A DNA stretch of 64,000 bases from a virus. Below are positions 5,600 through 57,409 of this stretch, in pieces; position 1 is the stretch's first letter; each line of letters begins with the position of its first letter. The DNA is taken from the IMG/VR virus record IMGVR_UViG_3300045988_154248. One strand, written 5' to 3'. Under the pieces are notes generated by a model that worked only from the letters and a program-made list of their open reading frames with translations, searched no databases and had not been told where the DNA came from. Made by a program: the position numbers and the translations under genes.

Positions 5600-6590
5600 T
5601 TATGTTTTATTTTTTACTGGCAGATATAATAGTTTGCCAGTATTATCGCGGGATATGCTGGATCGGTTCCACGAGAGATTCATGTTCTCTAAAGCTACGT
5701 TCGACTCGTAGTCCCGCAACTCGTGGCATAGCACAGATAGATGCGTGTGAGCGTATTAAAGGCGAATTTACAACTCGTCGCCATGAAAATTGGTCAATCT
5801 ATGCAAAACTAACATCCCAGGCACTCAAAAAGTGCTGTTTCATACCGGTAAAACGAGTAAGTCCTGTGTGGAAATAGTGTCAGGAAATAGGGAGTAACAA
5901 GGTGATTCAGGGGCAACCGCTGAGAATCATTTTTCTGCGCAACAGAATAGCTCACGCGAACCTATGAAGATATGATGGGGAATTAGGAGGATATATAGTG
6001 CGAGTCCTTATTAGACAAGTGCGATGTCCATTTGGGTAAGTGAATTGGTAGAGATGCCAAATTAGCTTATGCAGGATGCGAGTAGGGATTATAACCGAAA
6101 GCTACGAAGGCGTGATGGATTTTGTTATCCAAAAGATAACGAAACATCTGGTGCAGCGCGTCTTCTGTATTCAATTTCGTTTCTATTAATTAGTATATTC
6201 AGGAAGAATGTAAAAATTGGTTTGATGCAAAAGGTAAACAAATTATAAAGCGAAAGTCTGTACCTCTGTATGGTGTAAGCAGCCAAAATGTGTAATCTCT
6301 TTTGAGGTAATACACACACTGAAAGATACGCAATATCTGGATGTGTTAAGCGGATTCTGCACAGTTCTCTTAGCGGAGATTTATAGCACGGCAGTGTTAA
6401 TGGAACGATGAAACTTGAGTAGTCATACAGCAAAGAAGATAAGCCTCTTCTCAAAAGGCGGTTGTGGAAGATACTATATGTGTGCGCAAGCAACATATAG
6501 TGGATAACCGAAGAAAAAATAATGTCGGTAAAGGTTTCTGAAAATACGTATAATCTCAGCGTATTTATTTTGCTACTTCTGTAGCATTAT
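5600..6590 (+). ncRNA. large structured non-coding region (candidate ROOL/GOLLD-class RNA; strand uncertain)
   Basis: About 1 kb with no credible ORF and visibly more G+C than its flanks. Many local hairpins and GNRA-like loops (e.g. TACTGGCA..TGCCAGTA at 5617-5645, ccGAAAgc). Immediately 5' of a tRNA. Confidence 0.35.
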
Positions 6591-6664
6591 TGCGGTGTAG
6601 CTCAGTTGGTGAGAGCATTCGGCTTATATCCGAACGGTCGTGGGTTCGAGTCCTACCACCCCAA
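6591..6664 (+). tRNA. tRNA-Ile (anticodon TAT)
   Basis: Manual cloverleaf: D arm GCTC/GAGC, anticodon stem TTCGG/CCGAA with loop CTTATAT, T arm GTGGG-TTCGAGT-CCTAC. One C:C mismatch in the acceptor stem. Confidence 0.8.
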
Positions 6665-14887: not shown

Positions 14888-14959
14888 AGGTCGTTAGTGT
14901 AATTGGCAACACGGCAGTCTCCAAAACTGTTAATCAGGGTTCGAATCCCTGGCTTCCTG
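14888..14959 (+). tRNA. tRNA-Trp-like (anticodon CCA) with degenerate acceptor stem
   Basis: Good D arm (GTGT/ACAC), anticodon arm (GCAGT-CTCCAAA-ACTGT) and T arm (CAGGG-TTCGAAT-CCCTG). The acceptor stem has two internal mismatches (T:T, C:T). Confidence 0.5.
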
Positions 14960-19013: not shown

Positions 19014-19097
19014 GGGCAGATGTGCTTAGTGGCGATAGCAGTGGGCCGTAACCCCACCACATTAGAAACACCGTAGGTTCGACTCCTACTCTGCTCA
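19014..19097 (+). tRNA. tRNA-Tyr (anticodon GTA), long variable arm
   Basis: Acceptor GGGCAGA/TCTGCTC, anticodon stem GTGGG/CCCAC with loop CCGTAAC, T arm GTAGG-TTCGACT-CCTAC. Confidence 0.85.
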
Positions 19098-19107
19098 TTT
19101 TTGTTTT

Positions 19108-19197
19108 GGAGCTTTACTCAAGTTGGATGAAGAGATCAGTCCTGAAAACTGACAGGCCGTTAACAACGGCGCGTGGGTTCGAATCCTACAGGCTCCG
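19108..19197 (+). tRNA. tRNA-Ser (anticodon TGA), long variable arm
   Basis: Acceptor GGAGCTT/AGGCTCC, anticodon stem TCAGT/ACTGA with loop CCTGAAA, variable stem GCCGTT/AACGGC, T arm GTGGG-TTCGAAT-CCTAC. Confidence 0.85.
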
Positions 19198-19232: not shown

Positions 19233-19315
19233 GCCGGTATGGTGGAATTGGTAGACACATCTGGTTTAAGCCCAGATTGCTATGAGCAGTGCGAGTTCGA
19301 GTCTCGCTGCCGGTA
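19233..19315 (+). tRNA. tRNA-Leu (anticodon TAA), long variable arm
   Basis: GCCGGTATGGTGGAATTGGTAGACAC 5' half, anticodon stem TCTGG/CCAGA with loop TTTAAGC, T arm GCGAG-TTCGAGT-CTCGC. Confidence 0.8.
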
Positions 19316-48620: not shown

Positions 48621-51600
48621 TTAAAAAATTTAGGTGATTTATTTGGTAGTTTTGGAGAATTAAACTTACTGAGAAATAAATATGGAAAAAACGCAACATT
48701 TGATACATTAAGCAGTACACTACAACAGTCTTTTAACGAGTCTTTTAAAGTTGGGAAAAATGGAATTAGTGAATTTTCCACAGAGCAAATTAAAACTAAA
48801 GCATCTGTAATGGGATTAAATGATGCGTTGACAAAACAAGCATTATCTCTTGCGAATGACGCTGGTTTATATCAAAAAGCTGCGGCAGGTAATCTTACAT
48901 TTAGTAAGGCTATAGAATTAAATATAAATAATGCAAGCGATTTAGTTGATGCCTTGATGAGTAGTAATTCTGAAGTCTTAAAAAAATATAAAGATAACGA
49001 TATTGCTGATATGATAGCTAATTCAGGTGAAAAAGGCAGCGCGGCATATAATGAGTTTGTTAAAGATCTCATCGATAAAAATCAAGATTTAGGGGACTCA
49101 ATCGTTGAATTAGCACCCAAAGTAGAAACTACAAAATCCGCATTTTCTGGTTTATCAAACTATTTTAAAGGACTTTTTGCTACATTTACAAATCCGATTT
49201 TCCTTTTAACGACAGCCGTTACCGTAGGGGTTGCGGCATGGCAAGGCTATAACCAATCTGTCCAGGAATCCATCCAGCACACGAAAGACTCAATAGCAGA
49301 AATAGAGGAACGTAATAAGTCTATTGACGACAATATCAGTAAAGCACAGGAACTAAGGGATTCCCTTGATTCCGGTACTCTTACAGAGCAAGAAGCTTAT
49401 AACACGAAGAGTCAATTGCTTGATATCCAAAGTCAATTATCTGATTCTTATGGAGAACAGGCGGATGGAATTGATCTGGTAAATGGTAAGCTGGATGAGC
49501 AGATCGAGAAGATGCAGCAGCTCAAAGTTGAAAATGCGAAAAGCTGGCTGAATGATTCGGATAATGAGAAGAATTACGAAAAAGCTAAGAAGAAGATGAC
49601 CAAAGATGATTATGAGTCATTCTTTGGAAATACACCTACTTTATCTTTACTTGGTAATGCACCAGAAAAAGCCGACTATACAAATTCAGACGTATATAAA
49701 GATGCACTGAAACGTTATCAAAATAGCAAATCCCAGATCGAAGAAATCCAGAAAGCAGCAGAAAAAGCCGGACTAAAACAGTATACAAGTACAAGCACAG
49801 GTCAGTTCCAGCTTGGTTTTGAAAATGAAACAGTAACAGGAGCAGATGAAAAATTAAACTCCTTCCTCGCTACTGTTAAAGAACTGAAACGGCAGTTTGA
49901 TGATGAGGGTAAAAATACTGATTACTTTGATAATATCATCAGTTCCGCCGAAGATGCCGAATCTTCTTATAAGGATATTTTAGACAAGCATCAAGAAGTA
50001 TATCAAGAGTATCTGAAAAACTCCATGCTTGCAGAGGGTTATGGTAATAATAAGCCAGCCACAGTATACCAGCAATATGCGGATGCTGTAGATAAATATA
50101 ATGAAGCCCTGCAAAGTGGAGATACATCTAAGGTCGAAGCAGCGAAAACTGCATTAGATGGCGTAAAAGATTCCGTAGATAATATTGTCAGTAGAGATTC
50201 CGGAAAAAAATACAAGGAACTGTTTGATGAGATTGCAGATGGTATTGACACAGCATCCGAAAAAACTTATGAGTTCAAAGAACGCTTATCCGGTAAAGGT
50301 ACAGATAAATTAAACAATACTGTGCTTTCTAAGCTCAAAGAGTTGAAGAATTACACAGATATTGACCTCAAGAGTATCAATCTTGATACAAGTGATGTTG
50401 TTGCTGGTAAAGATGCTCTACGCATGGCAGTAAACGAAGCAATGGATCTTGACATTGTTTCCGATGATTCTGCTGAAAGTGTGGCAAAAGTTGTTGATCT
50501 CTTAACGGATATGGGTATGACGGCAACCGTATCCATGAATCAAGTGGATGATTCCTTCTCAGAAGTCAATACTACCATTCAGCAAGCACAAGCAAATCTG
50601 GAAACGCTCAAGACGATTATGTCTGAATCTGTTTCGGGAGCAGGTATTTCTGCCGATAATGTGAAAGCATTTAAAGAAATGTTCGGAGATGATGCTGCGC
50701 GTGCTTTGGAGAAAACCGCAGACGGTTACCATATCAATCGTGAAGAGCTTGCAAAATTACAGGCGCAACAGTCAGAAATGAACAAAGCGGATTATCTTTC
50801 CGGTTTGGCAGATCAGCAGGAAGCTCTGAGACAAATCGAGGAGCAGATCGCCGATGCAATGGTAAAAGGTCAAGATGTCAGCGGCTTACAGGCACAGCGC
50901 GAAGGTATTTTGGATAATATTTCCTCTCTGGAGGATCTAGCATATCAGTATCAAACTGCTACTTCTGCTTATCAACAATGGCAGGATGCTATGTCCGGTG
51001 GTGAAGAAGGTAATATGTATGATTCCATCCAGGGTAACATGGAATCCATCAAAGATCTCTACGACAAAGGACTTGTGGGAGAAAACAAATTCCGAGAGTT
51101 TGTTGACCTTATGTCCAATAAGGATCTGACCAATGCCAGTGTGGATGAAATCGTTGCGGCTTATGAAGAATCCTATCCGAAGATGGAACGTTATTTTACA
51201 GAAGGACAGGAAGGATGTCAAGCATTCTTACAAGATATATCCAACCTTAATTCTGAATGGGCGCACATGAATGAAGATGGTTCATGGGAGATTAATTTCG
51301 GAGTCGGAAACGATCAAGAGATTGCGGATGCATTAGGAATTGATGTGGAAGCTGTACAATCAGTACTAAGAAAACTGCATGATTTTGGCTTTGACATCGA
51401 CCTCGATCAGCCGGTTAAATCTTTGGAACAACTAAAGACAGAAGCTCAATCAGCCAAAGAAGCTCTTGATGGAATGGGTGAAACTTCTCTTGATAGCATC
51501 AATTTGGACACAGATTCATTCAGTGAAATCACAGATGATATTGACAAGGTTAAGGAATATATTCAGCAGATCAATGATGCTGATTTGGAGCCAGAAGTTC

Positions 51601-54487
51601 GGACAGAGAGACTGGAGCAAGCCAATAATATTCTTGATTATCTGGTACAGAAACAGCAAGAGGCTGGACATACAGATATTATCATTGATGCGGATGCAAG
51701 TTCTGTCGATCAAAAGATCTCTGATCTGAAGAGTCAACTGGAGCAATTCAGAAACGAAGACGGTACGATTCCTGTTAATGCCGATACACAAGATGCTGTC
51801 AACAGTCTGCAATCTTTGTATGCTACGAAGCAAAATCTTGAAAATACACCAGCTATTCTACAGGTTGATACTTCGCAGGTTGACGGAGAACTGGGCAATG
51901 CGATCGGAAAATTACAGGAATATCAGAATGCTGTAGAGATTCTGAATGCACAGAACACGATGAAAACACAGGGCATCGACATTGATACCACAGATGCACA
52001 GCAGAAAGTACAACAGTTGGCAGGACAGCTACAGAATCTTGATGCTGATACGACAGCAAAGTTAGGTCTTGACGATACTGATTTTCAGTCGAAACTTTCT
52101 AATATTGCTACTCATCCGATTGATGTAGGAATAGGGGTAAATCTTGATCCGAATGCTCTTGCCGACGTCTCTGCAAAGATTTCTGGAATTACGCCAGAAT
52201 TACTTGTAAAAGCTGGTGTAAACGAAGAGGCGATTGTAAATTATACGCCGAAAGATAAGGACGCTACGGTCAAATACAAAGTTGACCATAGTGCGATTGA
52301 CAGTTATGATCCGGAAGACAAAAATGCTACGGTTACTTACGGTGTGGTTGTTTCTGGACTTGAAAATCTACCAGGTAATAAAACAAGAAGTCTGACTTAC
52401 AATATTAAGACTAATGGTACGGCTCCAAAAGTAAATGGTACGGCACATGCTATAGGAACAGCTCATGCGGCAGGTACTGCAAGCCGTAATTGGGGGCTTG
52501 CTCACAATGAACCACATGCGCTTGTAAATGAATTGAAACCAGAAGCAATCGTTCGGGATGGTAAGGCGTTTATCTTGAATGGCGGAGATCCTACTTTTGC
52601 AAATCTGAAGAAAGATGATGTTGTATTCAACGGTGATCAGACGGAGCAGTTGCTTGAACATGGTTATGTTACCGGTTCTCATGCACAACTTGCAGGTGGT
52701 GGTTATTCTTTAGGTAGTGCGTTCTCTGGAGGATCGGGAAGATTTAATGTTGGAAGTTCTGGAACAAAAGCTGATTCTTCCACATGGGAAGACGAAAAGA
52801 AACAGAATAATACCAGCCCTAACTCATCTTCTGGTAGCAGTAGTCGTAAAAACAGTGGATCATCTTCTGGTGGTTCAACTCGATCACCTTCCGGTGGAAG
52901 TTCTGGTGGCTCTTCATCCTCTTCTGATGCAAAGTCAACAACAGAAGAAGTAGTTGATTTTATCAAAATTATGCTCTCCCGTCTGTCCCGTATGACAGAG
53001 CTTGCAACTAATGCAATCGAACGTGCAGTAGGTCTTGCAAATAAACAAGCAGCCGCAGCAGATGCAATCGGTAAAGCAACGAATGAAATGGTTCATAACC
53101 AACGTGCAGCAGATGCTTATTTGGCAAAAGCTAATAGCATTAGTTTGTCTGATGCTTATAAGAACCAGATCATGAATGGTAGTATTAATATAGATACCAT
53201 CACAGATGAAGATCTGAAAAAGAAAATTAGTGACTTCCAAAGCTATTATGAATCTTACTTATCTGCAAGAGACAATGCGTTAAAGCTCGAAGATAAAATT
53301 ACCGAACTCGCTGAAAAACGTCTGGAAATCATTGAAAAAGAATATGATGCGATCGTAGACATCAACGATGCGATAAAAACCGTAGCCGATTCCAAAATTT
53401 CTCTCAACGATGCGCTGGGCGTGGCGATTGACAATCCAGACAATTATGCTAATCTGAATAATTCAATCAAAGCACAGGAAGATACTTATAATCAGCTGAC
53501 GAAAAAGCTTTCCGATTATCAGAAAGAGATGGAGTCTCAACTTTCCAGCGGCTTGATGCAAAAGGGTTCTGATGCCTATAATTCTGCGCTAAAAAATATT
53601 CAAGATTTTACAGCTAAGATTTATGATGCTTCTACCAGCCTTCTTGAACTACGGGATAAATTGGATCAGATTAAAATTGATACTATCCAGAATGTAATTG
53701 ACGGAATCAAACGTAATTCGGATATTACGGAGAAATATATTTCTTACCTGCAATCTCAGAATCGTGATGTGCCAGAGAATCTATACACTGACCGTATAGA
53801 TAATAATAACGCTCAGGTACAGCAGAATCTAAAGCAGATGGAAATATACCGGAAGAAACAGGCGGTTCTTGATGTCAATTCTAAATCGTATCAAGATTAT
53901 GCAGAAAAGATTCAAACGCTAAAAGAAAATACTTTGGAACTGATTACGGACAATGAATCTCTTCAAGATAGTATCTATGAGCTACGATTTAAGCCACTTG
54001 ACGATGCTATCCAGAAGTACAGTGACCTTGAAGATGAGCTGAAAAGTTTCCGTGACCTTCTGAATGATGATGCATTCCTTGATAAGCAAGGACGTATCAC
54101 GGAAGATGGATTGGCACAGATTGCTCTCTTACAACAGAGTATTGGTACGGCAAAACAAAAAATTGCAGATTATACCACGGGCCTGCAAAAACTAAAAGAG
54201 TCTTATGACAATGGGGTTATTTCCTTAACGGAATATAATGACAAGTCAAAAGATTACCGTGAAGGTATTCAAGGTTCGATTGCAGATGTGAAATCATATC
54301 AGGACAGTCTGGTTGATCTGTATAAGAATGCTATGAGTACAGAGGTTGATTATCTAACCTCTATTGTAACGAAGAGACAAGAGGCGCTTCAAGCAAAAGC
54401 TGACTATTATTCCTATGATAAATCAATATCCAAAAAGAGCAATGATATTAATGTTATTAAAGCACAAATCATGGCTTTAGAAGGGGT
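48621..54487 (+). CDS. tail tape measure protein, exon 3 of 4 (5' boundary 48618 or 48621)
   Basis: ~1955 codons of helical TMP-like sequence, with the GTAHAIGTAHAAGTA..LVNELKPEAIVRDGKAFIL motif typical of Bacillota TMPs and a Ser/Gly-rich linker. Ends ...IMALEG-V at U 54487. Confidence 0.7.
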
Positions 54488-55075
54488 GAAATATTTGCTC
54501 CTATAAAATCTATTTAATTGCGGGAAGTCCCCATAAGGTTTAATTGGCTACAACGTAACCAGAAACGGTAGGCGTGAATGCGGTAGAGTTTTAAACTTAC
54601 AGTCCATTATTAGATAGAAACCATAAAAATAATTAAACTAGGGATAACCGAGTGTGCAAGTCACTCAGACGCAGCGAACTTCCTAAGTCAGAAATGATAT
54701 GGAAGACGTTCAGAGACTAACCCATATTGGGTGGCGCAATGCCTTAATGGAAGACTGCAAGCGATTGGCGGTCGAAAAAATATAGACTATTTGAATATTA
54801 AGTGATATTATAATTTTGAGGTGTGTTCTTTCCTATAATTAGTGATGAACAGATAGAACACAGTGTAGATACAACCAAAGAGACTCTCGAACACACATAT
54901 GAGAGAAGTAAGTAGAAGAAAAGACAACGAAATAGAACAATAAAGAAGATTGTGCAAGTTTGTAGAAGTTATACGAACCATCGTTCGCATGTTTGTGAAT
55001 TTTGCGAATAGATTTTTCTCTTGGGATTGCATATAATAAAGTCAAGAAAACCGTAAAGTTTTCTTATAATTAGTG

Positions 55076-55173
55076 GTTACGAAGCCATAAAATCGTATTA
55101 ATAGATGTTACGAAGCATGTAAAAAATCGTATTAATAGATGTTACGAAGCATGTAAAAAATCGTATTAATAGC
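55076..55173 (+). ncRNA. toxI: ToxI/AntiQ-like antitoxin RNA: ~2.9 tandem repeats of 31-34 nt
   Basis: GTTACGAAGCcATAAAATCGTATTAATAGAT / GTTACGAAGCATGTAAAAAATCGTATTAATAGAT / GTTACGAAGCATGTAAAAAATCGTATTAATAG. TATAAT (55065-55070) lies 5 nt upstream of the first repeat. Confidence 0.75.
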
Positions 55174-55197
55174 GGAGCTGGTTACAGCTCCTTTATT
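55174..55197 (+). terminator. rho-independent terminator between the antitoxin repeats and toxN
   Basis: GGAGCTG-gtta-CAGCTCC followed by TTTATT. Same placement as in characterised ToxIN/AbiQ loci. Confidence 0.7.
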
Positions 55198-55213
55198 ACT
55201 ATTAGGAGAAAAT

Positions 55214-55774
55214 ATGAAGTGGATTAATGTAGACGAAAAGTATACAGATTATCTTAGAAGTCACGAAGGAAGAATTCCTATGACCAATTATGGCACAGAT
55301 AAATACAAGCCATTTTTCGGTGTGCTGTTTGAAACAAATGGTTTGTATTATATTACACAGGTATCACATCCACGGGAAAAACATAAACGCTTGACACAAC
55401 AAAAAGATTTTTACAAAATATTTGATCCAGATAATACAACAAGATTAATAGCGGTTGTTAATCTTAATTACATGTTCCCAATTCCAAAAGAATGTACAAG
55501 TGCATTTGTTAAAAAGAATATAGGAACATATCGTACATTTAAATCAGAGAAAGCAAAAAGTCAATATATTAATTTGCTTGATAAAGAATTAAAAGTAATC
55601 AATAAAATGGATTTAGGAACAAAAGCATTGCAGTTGTATCATTTAAAATATACAGATCCTAACAGTACCGTTTCAAAAAGATGTATTGATTTTAAGGATA
55701 TGGAAAAATGGGCAAAGTTATATATTGAAACGTTAAATAATACAGAAACTACAGAACAACCCAAGGAGCAGTAA
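55214..55774 (+). CDS. toxN: ToxN/AbiQ-family type III toxin endoribonuclease
   Basis: MKWINVDEKYTDYLRSHEGRIP...YKPFFGVLFETNGLYYITQVSHPREKH...IAVVNLNYMFPIP...RCIDFKDME follows the ToxN/AbiQ pattern (F..v...Y..YL / KP..GV..e..g..Y.a.lsSPK.KH / i.l..MiPv / C.nF..lE). RBS AGGAGAAAAT. Confidence 0.8.
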   Translation: MKWINVDEKYTDYLRSHEGRIPMTNYGTDKYKPFFGVLFETNGLYYITQVSHPREKHKRLTQQKDFYKIFDPDNTTRLIAVVNLNYMFPIPKECTSAFVKKNIGTYRTFKSEKAKSQYINLLDKELKVINKMDLGTKALQLYHLKYTDPNSTVSKRCIDFKDMEKWAKLYIETLNNTETTEQPKEQ

Positions 55775-55790
55775 ATCTACTGCTCTTTTC
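55766..55790 (+). terminator. rho-independent terminator after toxN
   Basis: GAGCAGTA-aatc-TACTGCTC followed by TTTTC; overlaps the toxN stop codon. Confidence 0.6.
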
Positions 55791-55917
55791 TTATACCTCA
55801 AATCTTAATTACAATCCCTCAAATAAAATTCAAATAGAAGATATAGTCCCATGCCATACGAAAGTATGGGGAGCAGTTATGCTCTTGTCCACGTAGCGAG
55901 TGGATGAAAAGAAAATG

Positions 55918-57409
55918 AAATAACCTCGATGCTCAATCTCAAGTTAAGAAATTGAAGCAACAGCTTTCAGAAGCAGAGCAAGATTTAGCCGATACTAAGC
56001 GTGACCATGCAAATGATATGCAGTCTCAAGGTTACGATAAGCTCAGTGAAGATCTGAAAACTTCTCTTGATGATACCGAGTACGAAATTAGTCATAATGC
56101 TGACAAACAGCTTGAGATCATCAATTCTATGCTTGACAAAGCCGTGTCCTCTTATCAAGAAGCATATGGCAAAATCAACTCTATCATCAAAAATACTGGC
56201 TGGGTAGGTAGTACGGATTTTAACAATACCCAGTCTGATCTAAGCACAGAGACAGGTGTTAAGAATCAAAATTCCAACGCATCACAGTCTCAGTCCAGTG
56301 CAAATAAAAATCCATCCAGTACCGCATCTGGTACAAAAACTGATCCAATCAACAGTAATTCAAAAGCAAACAGTGATCTTGCGGATCAATTAGTTAAACC
56401 GGAAGATACAACGAATCGTAAGGTTGCGGAACTAAAGGTGTCTCCTACTTCTACTACACTGAAAGAGGGTAAATCCACAAGTATTACTGCTACAATCAGA
56501 CCGAACGATGCAGCTAATAAGACTCTTGCTTGGAAATCAAGTAATGAATCCATTGCTACTGTATCCAATGGTACGGTAAAAGCAAAGAAAGCAGGTTCCT
56601 GCACGATCACTGCTACTACTACTGACGGCAGCGGTTTATCTGCGAAAGTATCTGTTAAAGTCAATGCGAAACCAAAACCACCAAAGCCACAGCCGAAACC
56701 ACAACCAGCAAAAACTGGTGGAGATGGAATTCCTCGTGTTGGCGATGTCGTAACGTTCACAGGATCTTATTATAATGATTCCTGGGGTATGGCTCCAAAA
56801 GGTAGTAGATTTTCCGGTCAGCCTGGTGCTGTTGTTATTGACTCTTACACGGCTAGGGAATATGGCGGAAATGGACGTACTACTGGTGATTTTAAGATCC
56901 ATATCAAGAGTGCGCATGATCCTAATTATAGTGATCTTGGATGGGTGCGTCTTAGCCAGATTAGTGGTTATGAAAAGGGTACGGATCGTATTCATGGTGA
57001 TCAGCTTGTATGGACAAATGAAAATAAAGACACCAAACATCATGGCGTTTCAGAATTAATCTATCGCAAGAAAGATGGTGCTGTCCTTACACCTGTTCAA
57101 GATGGAGATTCTATTCTACCAGCAGATTTTGTAAGTAATTTGATTAAATTAAGTGCAATTGATCCTAAAGAATTCGGTATGAATGTAAGTACTACGCCAA
57201 ATCTGGTACAGACGAACATTCCTCAAAATATCAGCAATGTTGGAAATGTAACGGTAAAAAATCATTATGATTCATTACTCACAGTTGAAGGTAATGTTGA
57301 TAGGGATGCTCTGCCTGGATTACAGGAAATTCTTGAAAAGTCTTATCAGTATACAAGTAAACAGATCGTGAAAGATGCAAGAAAAGTTGGTATTAGACCA
57401 TCAAGATGA
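55918..57409 (+). CDS. tail tape measure protein, exon 4 of 4 (Big_2 Ig-like + SH3-like C-terminal domains)
   Basis: In-frame continuation NNLDAQSQVKKLKQQL... Contains the Big_2-like VAELKVSPTSTTLKEGKSTSITATIRPNDAANKTLAWKSSNESIATVS..GTVKAKKAGSCTITATT, a PKPPKPQPKPQP linker and a beta-rich C-terminal domain. Confidence 0.7.

Follow-up and report, generated by a model that had tools for sequence, protein, structure and literature searches.

Why should an essential tail gene of a phage hold, in its middle, a complete type III toxin-antitoxin (TA) locus? The question is raised by a 64,000-nt stretch of viral DNA (IMG/VR record IMGVR_UViG_3300045988_154248; the whole stretch is called the window below). 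A first examination of its letters, made without database searches and referred to here as the sequence-only reading, had placed a ToxIN/AbiQ-like locus inside a group I intron of the tape-measure gene. Having followed up this proposal computationally, we conclude that the TA locus is a new member of the toxIN family and that the element around it is a group I intron. We further consider it likely that the intron cuts the tape-measure gene of a temperate phage and carries, in its P8 loop, a self-contained, sense-oriented type III TA cassette that the prophage expresses for abortive infection or addiction.

A complete toxIN cassette

The cassette consists of the following parts.

55028-55795, plus strand: ToxIN cassette, comprising promoter-like -10 box, leader hairpin, repeats, terminator, toxN and second terminator
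55032-55037, plus strand: probable -10 box TATAAT, whose position is shared by free-standing toxIN relatives and by other intron cassettes
55044-55065, plus strand: 5' leader hairpin AAGAAAAC-CGUAAA-GUUUUCUU (fold z = -6.4)
55076-55172, plus strand: ToxI-type antitoxin array of 2.9 x 31/34 nt, called by Tandem Repeats Finder (TRF)
55174-55200, plus strand: intrinsic terminator between toxI and toxN (terminator scan; hairpin 55174-55191 and T tract)
55214-55774, plus strand: toxN, by homology an endoribonuclease toxin of 186 aa, with the ribosome-binding site AGGAGA upstream (55204-55209)
55763-55795, plus strand: second intrinsic terminator (hairpin 55763-55788, -14.2 kcal/mol, z = -6.1)

The 186-aa open reading frame (ORF) behind the first terminator had been said to follow the ToxN/AbiQ pattern, and profile search, sequence comparison with solved structures and predicted fold all agree that it is a full-length protein of this family. 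Pfam PF13958 (ToxN_toxin) matches residues 1-170, over its full length (E = 5.8e-43), the AbiQ model of PADLOC matches at 5.5e-21, and the best sequence matches among solved structures are the ToxN proteins of B. thuringiensis (4ATO, the top match), P. atrosepticum (2XD0) and E. coli (7D8O). A structure prediction, proposed with the original claim, points the same way: an AlphaFold2 model built from 31 homologues (mean pLDDT 91) had 2XD0, 4ATO, 7D8O and 4GLK (AbiQ) as its top four Foldseek matches in the PDB, with target-normalised TM values of 0.79-0.81 and E ~1e-9, CptN and MazF ranking far behind. Compared with free-standing relatives, toxN has a dN/dS of 0.08-0.17. The exact protein is called ToxN by automatic GenBank annotation in metagenome-assembled genomes (MAGs) of uncultured phages (UVX82473.1, DAO81412.1 and DAZ43492.1), in records that carry only the names 'Bacteriophage sp.' or 'Caudoviricetes sp.', and a tblastn search with ToxN against 50,697 GenBank phages returned only a 27%-identical match in a Clostridioides plasmid-phage. 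By analogy with characterized relatives, ToxN would be toxic, would process the repeats and would be inhibited by the repeat RNA; an abortive-infection or anti-phage role is likewise suggested by its homology to AbiQ.

The working definition of a type III locus given by Blower 2012 comprises tandem repeats, then a palindromic terminator, then a toxin gene. This is the architecture that the sequence-only reading had recognized, and each of its parts was recovered by an independent program. For the repeats, read as about 2.9 tandem units of 31-34 nt, TRF reported a period of 34 nt and 2.9 copies, both full copies being 100% identical; introns that are otherwise the same differ in copy number (1.9 or 2.9). 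Every unit contains a 5-bp hairpin that alternates between UUACGA/UCGUA and UACAG/CUGUA across the compared arrays, with a third variant, UAUAG/CUAUA, in locus L037 (such labels denote the loci with which the window was compared). Since this hairpin covaries across arrays (98% of cells paired versus 10-62% in slid-partner controls, with two pairs double-compensatory), the repeats appear to be constrained as RNA. The fold and covariance analysis proposed for the repeat thus yielded a covarying hairpin but did not demonstrate a pseudoknot, and Rfam found no family match over the array. The GGAGCTG/CAGCTCC terminator noted after the repeats was found by the terminator scan as well; written out, it is GGAGCTG-GTTA-CAGCTCC, with a 7-bp G+C-rich stem (-15.4 kcal/mol, z = -5.5 versus shuffles) that is invariant across five loci and a loop that is variable (four variants among five). 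The 5' arm of the second terminator contains the last two codons and the stop codon of toxN (GAG CAG TAA).

Only the promoter needs to be moved. The TATAAT reported 5 nt upstream of the first repeat is present, at 55065-55070, but is probably not used: it lies within the 3' arm of the leader hairpin and is missing from the homologous cassettes. The TATAAT at 55032-55037 is the likelier -10 box because it is conserved in all homologous cassettes. It is accompanied by a weak -35 and was not listed by a generic promoter scan; we regard it as the probable -10 of a promoter belonging to the cassette itself, whose activity is predicted from conservation.

A group I intron within the tape-measure gene

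The cassette is enclosed by intron and exon features on both sides.

48810-54487, plus strand: exon 1 of the tape-measure gene, a long ORF of 1892 codons plus 2 nt
54482-54502, plus strand: P1, in which AGGGGU of the exon and GAA of the intron pair with the internal guide UUUGCUCCU (Rfam alignment)
54488-55917, plus strand: group I intron of 1430 nt, with a core of about 400 nt and 1031 nt of L8 cargo
54708-54720, plus strand: R element, or P7 5' strand, GUUCAGAGACUAA, in agreement with the Rfam consensus GUUCAaAGACUA
54787-54796, plus strand: P8 5' strand CUAUUUGAAU, inverted repeat of 55828-55837
54797-55027, plus strand: conserved L8 segment upstream of the cassette (~230 nt), with a hairpin at 54822-54862 and a terminator-like hairpin at 54974-54987
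55828-55837, plus strand: P8 3' strand AUUCAAAUAG, put by Rfam directly before S
55838-55849, plus strand: S element, or P7 3' strand, AAGAUAUAGUCC, in agreement with the Rfam consensus gAAGAUAUAGUCu
55850-55917, plus strand: P9, P9.1 and P9.2 hairpins, each with compensatory changes, followed by the terminal omega-G (55917)
55918-57409, plus strand: exon 2 of the tape-measure gene, including a Big_2 Ig-like domain

Joining the exons in silico at the splice sites proposed earlier, 54487 and 55918, restores a single open frame of 2389 codons. The spliced product aligns without gaps to an intron-less homologue (L018, 62% identity) over 157 residues spanning the junction, and the exon 2 frame starts with neither an ATG nor a Shine-Dalgarno sequence. 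We assigned the gene as a tape measure from its size, its composition and coiled-coil character, and its position upstream of a DUF6558 phage-tail gene; neither exon matched a tape-measure family in Pfam or PHROG.

The R (GTTCAGAGACTAA, 54708-54720) and S (AAGATATAGTCC, 55838-55849) elements are where they had been read, and both fit the Rfam Intron_gpI consensus. Between them runs a 10-bp P8 stem (54787-54796/55828-55837) adjoining the S element, one A-U pair of which is G-C in a sister intron. As this stem stands immediately before S, the cargo is the terminal loop of P8 (54797-55827), and the placement of the cassette between R and S in a P8-type loop holds. At the 5' splice site, U54487.G forms the wobble pair of P1, and UAUUU (54492-54496), beside the guide, can pair with AAAUA of exon 2 as P10. 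Across five intron variants, the 5' exon and the guide covary (GGGGU/GCUCC, GGUGU/GCACC, UCGGU/GCCGA, GCGU/GCGC and GUGGU/GCCAC) with the U.G kept, and the terminal G is invariant in all of them. An alignment of nine intron cores with the cargo removed gave 91 predicted consensus pairs, 18 of which show compensatory changes; these are located in P1, P6, the P7.x hairpin, P8, P9, P9.1 and P9.2, mostly from P6 onward.

Rfam did not report the intron at gathering thresholds. A permissive search of 54300-56100 matched RF00028 (Intron_gpI) twice, in the right order and on the plus strand: a 5' half at 54478-54810 (19.7 bits), which takes in P1 and GUUCAGAGACUA, and a 3' half at 55761-55870 (27.6 bits), which takes in the P8 3' strand, GAAGAUAUAGUCC and P9. 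Each half stays below threshold because the 1-kb L8 cargo splits the model; a copy free of cargo (P8 with a 3-30-nt loop), which would allow intact scoring, was sought in IMG/VR, and none was found. Combined, the P1/P10 covariation, the compensatory pairs and the in-frame junction support the identification of the enclosing element as a group I intron, and self-splicing is what these features predict.

The L8 segment ahead of the cassette (54797-55027) is 100% conserved among introns of the ToxN type and is shared with the type carrying a 188-aa cargo and, in part, with a PBECR4 type. Examined as a structured RNA, it showed one conserved hairpin, no convincing covariation and no conserved ORF; two minus-strand ORFs of 74 and 68 aa were rejected as genes since a more diverged variant does not keep them. 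The motif TTTCYTATAATTAGTG occurs once within this segment and again at 55060.

The phage itself is temperate, uncultured and known from metagenomes only, its temperate lifestyle following from an integrase ~9 kb downstream in related contigs. Searches of the 50,697 GenBank phages with the region (megablast) and with the spliced junction (tblastn) gave zero matches, leaving it without a cultured relative in that set. The exact spliced junction was also sought in IMG/VR for a close intron-less allele; none was found, the 62%-identical L018 being the only intron-less gene recovered.

Recent spread of the intron

When seven contigs were compared with the window, identity changed abruptly along the gene.

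Exon 1, upstream of the last 50 nt: 92-94% identity to the window
Exon 1, last 50 nt: 86% identity
Intron: 99-100% identity
Exon 2, first ~300 nt: 99-100% identity
Exon 2, distal part: 88-89% identity

Because the intron is 99-100% identical in contigs whose flanking exons have diverged, it must have spread recently, and the profile is the one usually left by a spreading intron with co-conversion on one side. From these alignments we take the intron to be mobile now or to have been so until recently. The exact ToxN protein is encoded in 270 blocks of the assembly collection, and 10/10 places inspected share the context; among the inspected contigs the intron varies at three positions only, in addition to repeat copy number.

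A peripheral loop of this kind had been described in the sequence-only reading as the usual place of homing-endonuclease ORFs, and a sister intron at the same codon (L015, L024) indeed has in its L8 an ORF of 427-499 aa that PHROG classifies as HNH/homing endonuclease. The 499-aa enzyme matches phrog_559 (8e-48) and gave nothing useful with Pfam; it is also encoded in composite introns such as L003. Such composites recur. They consist of the 5' domain of the sister intron, the HNH gene, a first S/P9 and then a second P8-cargo-S-P9 module, and so possess two alternative P7 3' strands and a sole 3' splice site, located after the second module. The cargo is the ToxIN of the window in L003 (7705-10704), a different cargo in L013, and yet a different one in L027-L029 and L041/L043.

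Free-standing relatives of the cassette

Relatives of ToxN with 68-77% identity are encoded outside introns in four loci from Lachnospiraceae and other gut MAGs (L030-L033). All have the same order of parts, namely the conserved -10 box, a leader hairpin, about three 31-34-nt repeats, a terminator and toxN. Their leader hairpins follow the pattern AAGAAAnn...nnTTTCTT with differing stems and loops, their repeats are homologous to those of the window, and the GGAGCTG/CAGCTCC stem of the terminator is the same. L033, which encodes a 77%-identical ToxN, has units equal to u1 and u2/u3 of the window in the first and third places of its array. Since layout and homologous repeats recur in unrelated loci, the layout is not due to chance; since free-standing relatives keep an identical part order, the whole cassette was captured as a unit.

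Such loci also lie next to tape-measure genes that have no intron. In L031 (2865-3510), toxIN sits just upstream of the apparent N-terminus of a tape-measure-like ORF, and in L069/L070 (2343-3094) a drum RNA and a PBECR4 gene are flanked by the tape-measure gene on one side and the DUF6558 gene on the other. The region of the tail module seems to be preferred by cassettes of RNA and toxin.

A possible exchangeable slot for toxin cassettes

The database search for similar introns that the sequence-only reading had recommended uncovered cognate introns with ToxIN and with other cargos. Intron cores 93-98% identical to that of the window carry a 188-aa protein, an NYN protein or PBECR4 plus drum, on the same strand and in L8. 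More diverged introns, some of them at another site, contain a PemK-like, DUF3990 or 167-aa cargo, or a second ToxIN.

L011: 188-aa protein with no assigned family
L012: NYN RNase (Pfam 1.3e-13; PADLOC HEC-09 7e-18)
L016, L025, L035: PBECR4 nucleases of 199-215 aa (2e-20), with Rfam drum RNA before each
L028, L055: PemK/MazF-like proteins (L055, 7e-22; L028 also has drum and skipping-rope RNAs)
L037: second ToxIN with 3.1 x 31-nt repeats and a ToxN 52% identical to that of the window
L064: DUF3990 protein and a small downstream ORF
L068: 167-aa protein, with a Fusobacteriales-1 RNA before the ORF

Two of these loci, L037 (1889-3215) and L064 (7106-8600), represent related introns with the same P8 motif at a different site (exon ending in ...GUGGU, guide GCCAC), in a host gene that is coiled-coil and tape-measure-like.

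Most cassettes in the slot open with the common -10 box and leader hairpin; the hairpin, with differing stem and loop sequences, is present in L011, L016, L025, L037 and L068 as well as in the free-standing L030-L033. On the other side, a GAGCAGTAA...TACTGCTC-TTTT motif closes the cassettes of L011, L016, L037, L064 and L068, with a divergent copy in L055. This shared terminator is the reason why most cassette ORFs end in ...EQ*, and the second terminator of the window is, by this comparison, the conserved right-hand boundary of most cargo cassettes. Because sister introns hold exchangeable cassettes, the ToxIN of the window is one allele of a modular slot and no accident.

Several of these toxins have an RNA partner of a known but orphan class. 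Drum RNA (RF02958) lies on the same strand directly upstream of every PBECR4 gene examined, within introns and elsewhere.

Drum in sister introns: L016 3095-3201; L025 3034-3142; L035 2165-2275, minus strand; L050 5274-5384, minus strand
Drum in L028: 5703-5810 and 5880-5981
Non-intronic drum: L069 2343-2449; L071 2368-2479; L073 2335-2446; L074 2344-2449

The non-intronic cases are four PBECR4 homologues (45-49% identity) in unrelated contexts, with drum upstream in 4/4; one is situated between phage tape-measure and distal tail (DUF6558) genes and one is chromosomal, beside a tRNA gene. Weinberg et al. 2017 described terminators in drum RNAs and their association with a protein gene close by, leaving the function open. 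As drum stands in the ToxI position of the cassettes, it is a candidate antitoxin; its constant placement suggests that it is the RNA partner of PBECR4 and probably its antitoxin, which would give an RNA class described in 2017 a concrete, testable function. In addition, a Fusobacteriales-1 RNA (77.5 bits) was seen upstream of the 167-aa ORF in L068 (1786-1904), and a skipping-rope RNA (71 bits) downstream of the PemK/MazF-like ORF in L028 (6835-6915).

The chances seem about even that the P8 loop is a dedicated, exchangeable slot for RNase-toxin modules, bounded by a shared promoter/leader and terminator, and that drum, Fusobacteriales-1 and perhaps skipping-rope, which stand where ToxI would, are the RNA antitoxins of new type III-like systems with PBECR4 and other nucleases as partners. 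If so, a self-splicing intron would act as the carrier of defence or addiction genes within genes that are essential to the phage.

Elsewhere in the window, a GOLLD RNA (RF02032, 193 bits, E 7e-53) was found at 6105-6562 with a tRNA gene (6591-6664) immediately downstream, and four more phage tRNA genes are located at 14888-14959, 19014-19097, 19108-19197 and 19233-19315.

How the cassette might work

For the prophage-expressed cassette that we favor, the following course of events can be proposed. In the lysogen, where late tail genes are silent, the cassette would be transcribed from its own promoter, as in ToxIN(Pa), ToxIN(Bt) and AbiQ. The first terminator would hold ToxI RNA above toxN mRNA, and ToxN would cleave the precursor in the A-run, releasing 34-nt units that bind and inhibit it; the second terminator would keep transcription that starts at the cassette promoter out of exon 2 and of the tail genes behind it. 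Upon transcription shut-off by a superinfecting phage, or upon loss of the prophage, the labile ToxI would decay, and freed ToxN would degrade cellular and viral RNA, resulting in abortive infection, addiction or both. During lytic growth, the intron with its entire insert would be spliced from the late mRNA; a 1.4-kb insertion, although it interrupts an essential structural gene, would thereby be phenotypically silent. The intron would thus offer both a safe landing site and a vehicle for the cassette, by homing or recombination, and the vehicle role could work in trans or in composite introns equipped with the HNH gene.

Several points weigh against this proposal. Two sense-strand terminators should hinder transcription of exon 2 in the lytic phase unless the late transcription complex is antiterminated. 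Processing of the repeats by ToxN would sever the pre-mRNA inside the intron, so that exon ligation must come first or run in trans. Neither the ORF list nor Pfam revealed an endonuclease ORF in the intron allele of the window, and since this allele lacks a homing endonuclease, its mode of spread is only inferred. Both RF00028 halves fall short of the 50-bit gathering score; the core was assigned without P3, P7.1 and P7.2, and its IA-type subgroup is not certain. The tape-measure identity leans solely on position and size. The representative genomes of GTDB gave only ToxN relatives of 68-77% identity, from gut MAGs with Lachnospiraceae among them. What is said on splicing, promoter activity, toxicity, neutralisation and the exclusion of phages is in each case a prediction made in silico.

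Two other functions, each compatible with the prophage-expressed cassette, must be considered, although we think it unlikely that either is the principal one. In the first, counter-defence, the main value of the cassette would be its ToxI RNA, which would neutralize a related ToxN of the host in the manner of the pseudo-ToxI of Pectobacterium phage PhiTE, its own toxN being secondary. Gut toxIN loci of the Lachnospiraceae type do have identical or nearly identical repeat units (L033), and late transcription through the intron would yield abundant ToxI-containing RNA. However, a purely antitoxic role would not preserve a toxN that is intact, full length, invariant in >200 contigs and under purifying selection, and the slot holds many other toxins with no obvious matching host system.

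In the second, pure addiction, which we judge to be similarly improbable, the TA locus would benefit only the intron or prophage by killing cells or genomes that lose it and would give no protection against other phages. Type III systems such as ToxIN(Bt) are reported to stabilise plasmids (PMC4615649), the intron is nearly invariant and widespread, and an element without an endonuclease would profit from post-segregational killing. Nevertheless, the ToxN/AbiQ family is best known for abortive infection, the diversity and turnover of cargo in the slot look more like those of defence hotspots, and prophages in any case rarely lose an intron precisely.

It is far less probable that the cassette is there for ToxN to act on the intron RNA, with cleavage in L8 regulating splicing or expression of the tape measure. 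Given this anatomy, in which the repeats belong to the intron of the pre-mRNA, ToxN would necessarily cut the intron, and splicing in trans is still within reach of group I introns that are split in a peripheral loop, as known from T4 td. Yet the slot also holds unrelated toxins and a homing endonuclease, so that no ToxN-specific splicing role is needed, and the cassette has free-standing relatives without an intron.

Least credible of all is a dead relic of an intron, with a tape measure made as two separately translated proteins and the TA cassette as an ordinary intergenic moron: the Rfam matches are sub-threshold, gene callers annotate two ORFs and some relatives carry PBECR4 and drum between the tape-measure and Dit genes with no intron, but such a relic would hardly retain P1/P10 pairings that change along with the exons in five variants, a U.G and an omega-G that never vary, 18 compensatory pairs, a junction that is exact and gapless against an intron-less homologue, and an exon 2 that lacks a start of its own.

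Relation to known systems

To our knowledge, what group I introns carry has so far been limited essentially to homing endonucleases and maturases. The intron described here carries a whole RNA-protein TA operon that is predicted to be regulated separately and is one of about ten alternative toxin cassettes in the same loop. The sequence-only reading had considered a TA module as intron cargo to be undescribed, and our full-text literature search likewise turned up no TA or defence cassette in this role. What is new is the combination, a TA cassette as cargo of a mobile group I intron; tape-measure introns and type III loci of prophages were already known. Group I introns are documented in the tape-measure genes of ICP1, where endonuclease content varies, and of Bacillus phages, and type III loci have been documented in Lachnospiraceae, on a plasmid prophage and in viral MAGs (Blower 2012, among other sources). 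The arrangement points to a possible cost-free site for defence or addiction genes in phages, in which the insert would be spliced from an essential gene and the slot travels between diverged phages together with the intron. It also raises the questions of how late transcription passes two intronic terminators and whether cutting of the pre-mRNA by ToxN forces splicing in trans.

As a TA locus, the cassette resembles ToxIN of Pectobacterium atrosepticum and Bacillus thuringiensis and AbiQ of Lactococcus in its putative promoter, tandem repeats, attenuating terminator and endoribonuclease of the ToxN fold. Number and length of the repeats are reminiscent of ToxIN(Bt) (2.9 x 34 nt) and AbiQ, each repeat including an A-run. 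What sets it apart from these systems is its place, the P8 loop of a group I intron that interrupts an essential structural gene of a phage, along with two further parts, a conserved hairpin in the 5' leader and a second terminator that takes in the toxN stop codon; its ToxN is only ~18-22% identical to the characterized ToxN/AbiQ proteins.

As an intron, the element recalls those of T4 td, nrdB and sunY and of the SPO1 DNA polymerase gene, which carry homing-endonuclease genes in peripheral loops, and those of the ICP1 and Bacillus phage tape-measure genes. It shares with them a probable IA-type core, R and S elements, an ORF looped out from a peripheral helix and residence in a conserved essential gene, as well as conservation far beyond that of the exons, a co-conversion tract and turnover of cargo, the last described in ICP1 for homing-endonuclease genes. 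In contrast to these introns, its cargo is neither a DNA endonuclease nor a maturase, but a TA operon with a predicted promoter and a terminator of its own.

As a site for accessory genes, finally, the slot is comparable to prophage morons and defence hotspots, such as those of P2 and P4 and the morons of lambdoid phages, where defence genes that the prophage expresses occupy fixed variable positions. Common to both are a terminator and a promoter (putative in the cassette) of their own, a content that varies within conserved flanks, and the origin of this content in toxin or defence families. The difference is one of location: whereas the known hotspots are intergenic, this slot lies inside an intron inside a gene, and its flanks are the promoter/leader and terminator of the cassette itself together with the P8 stem.

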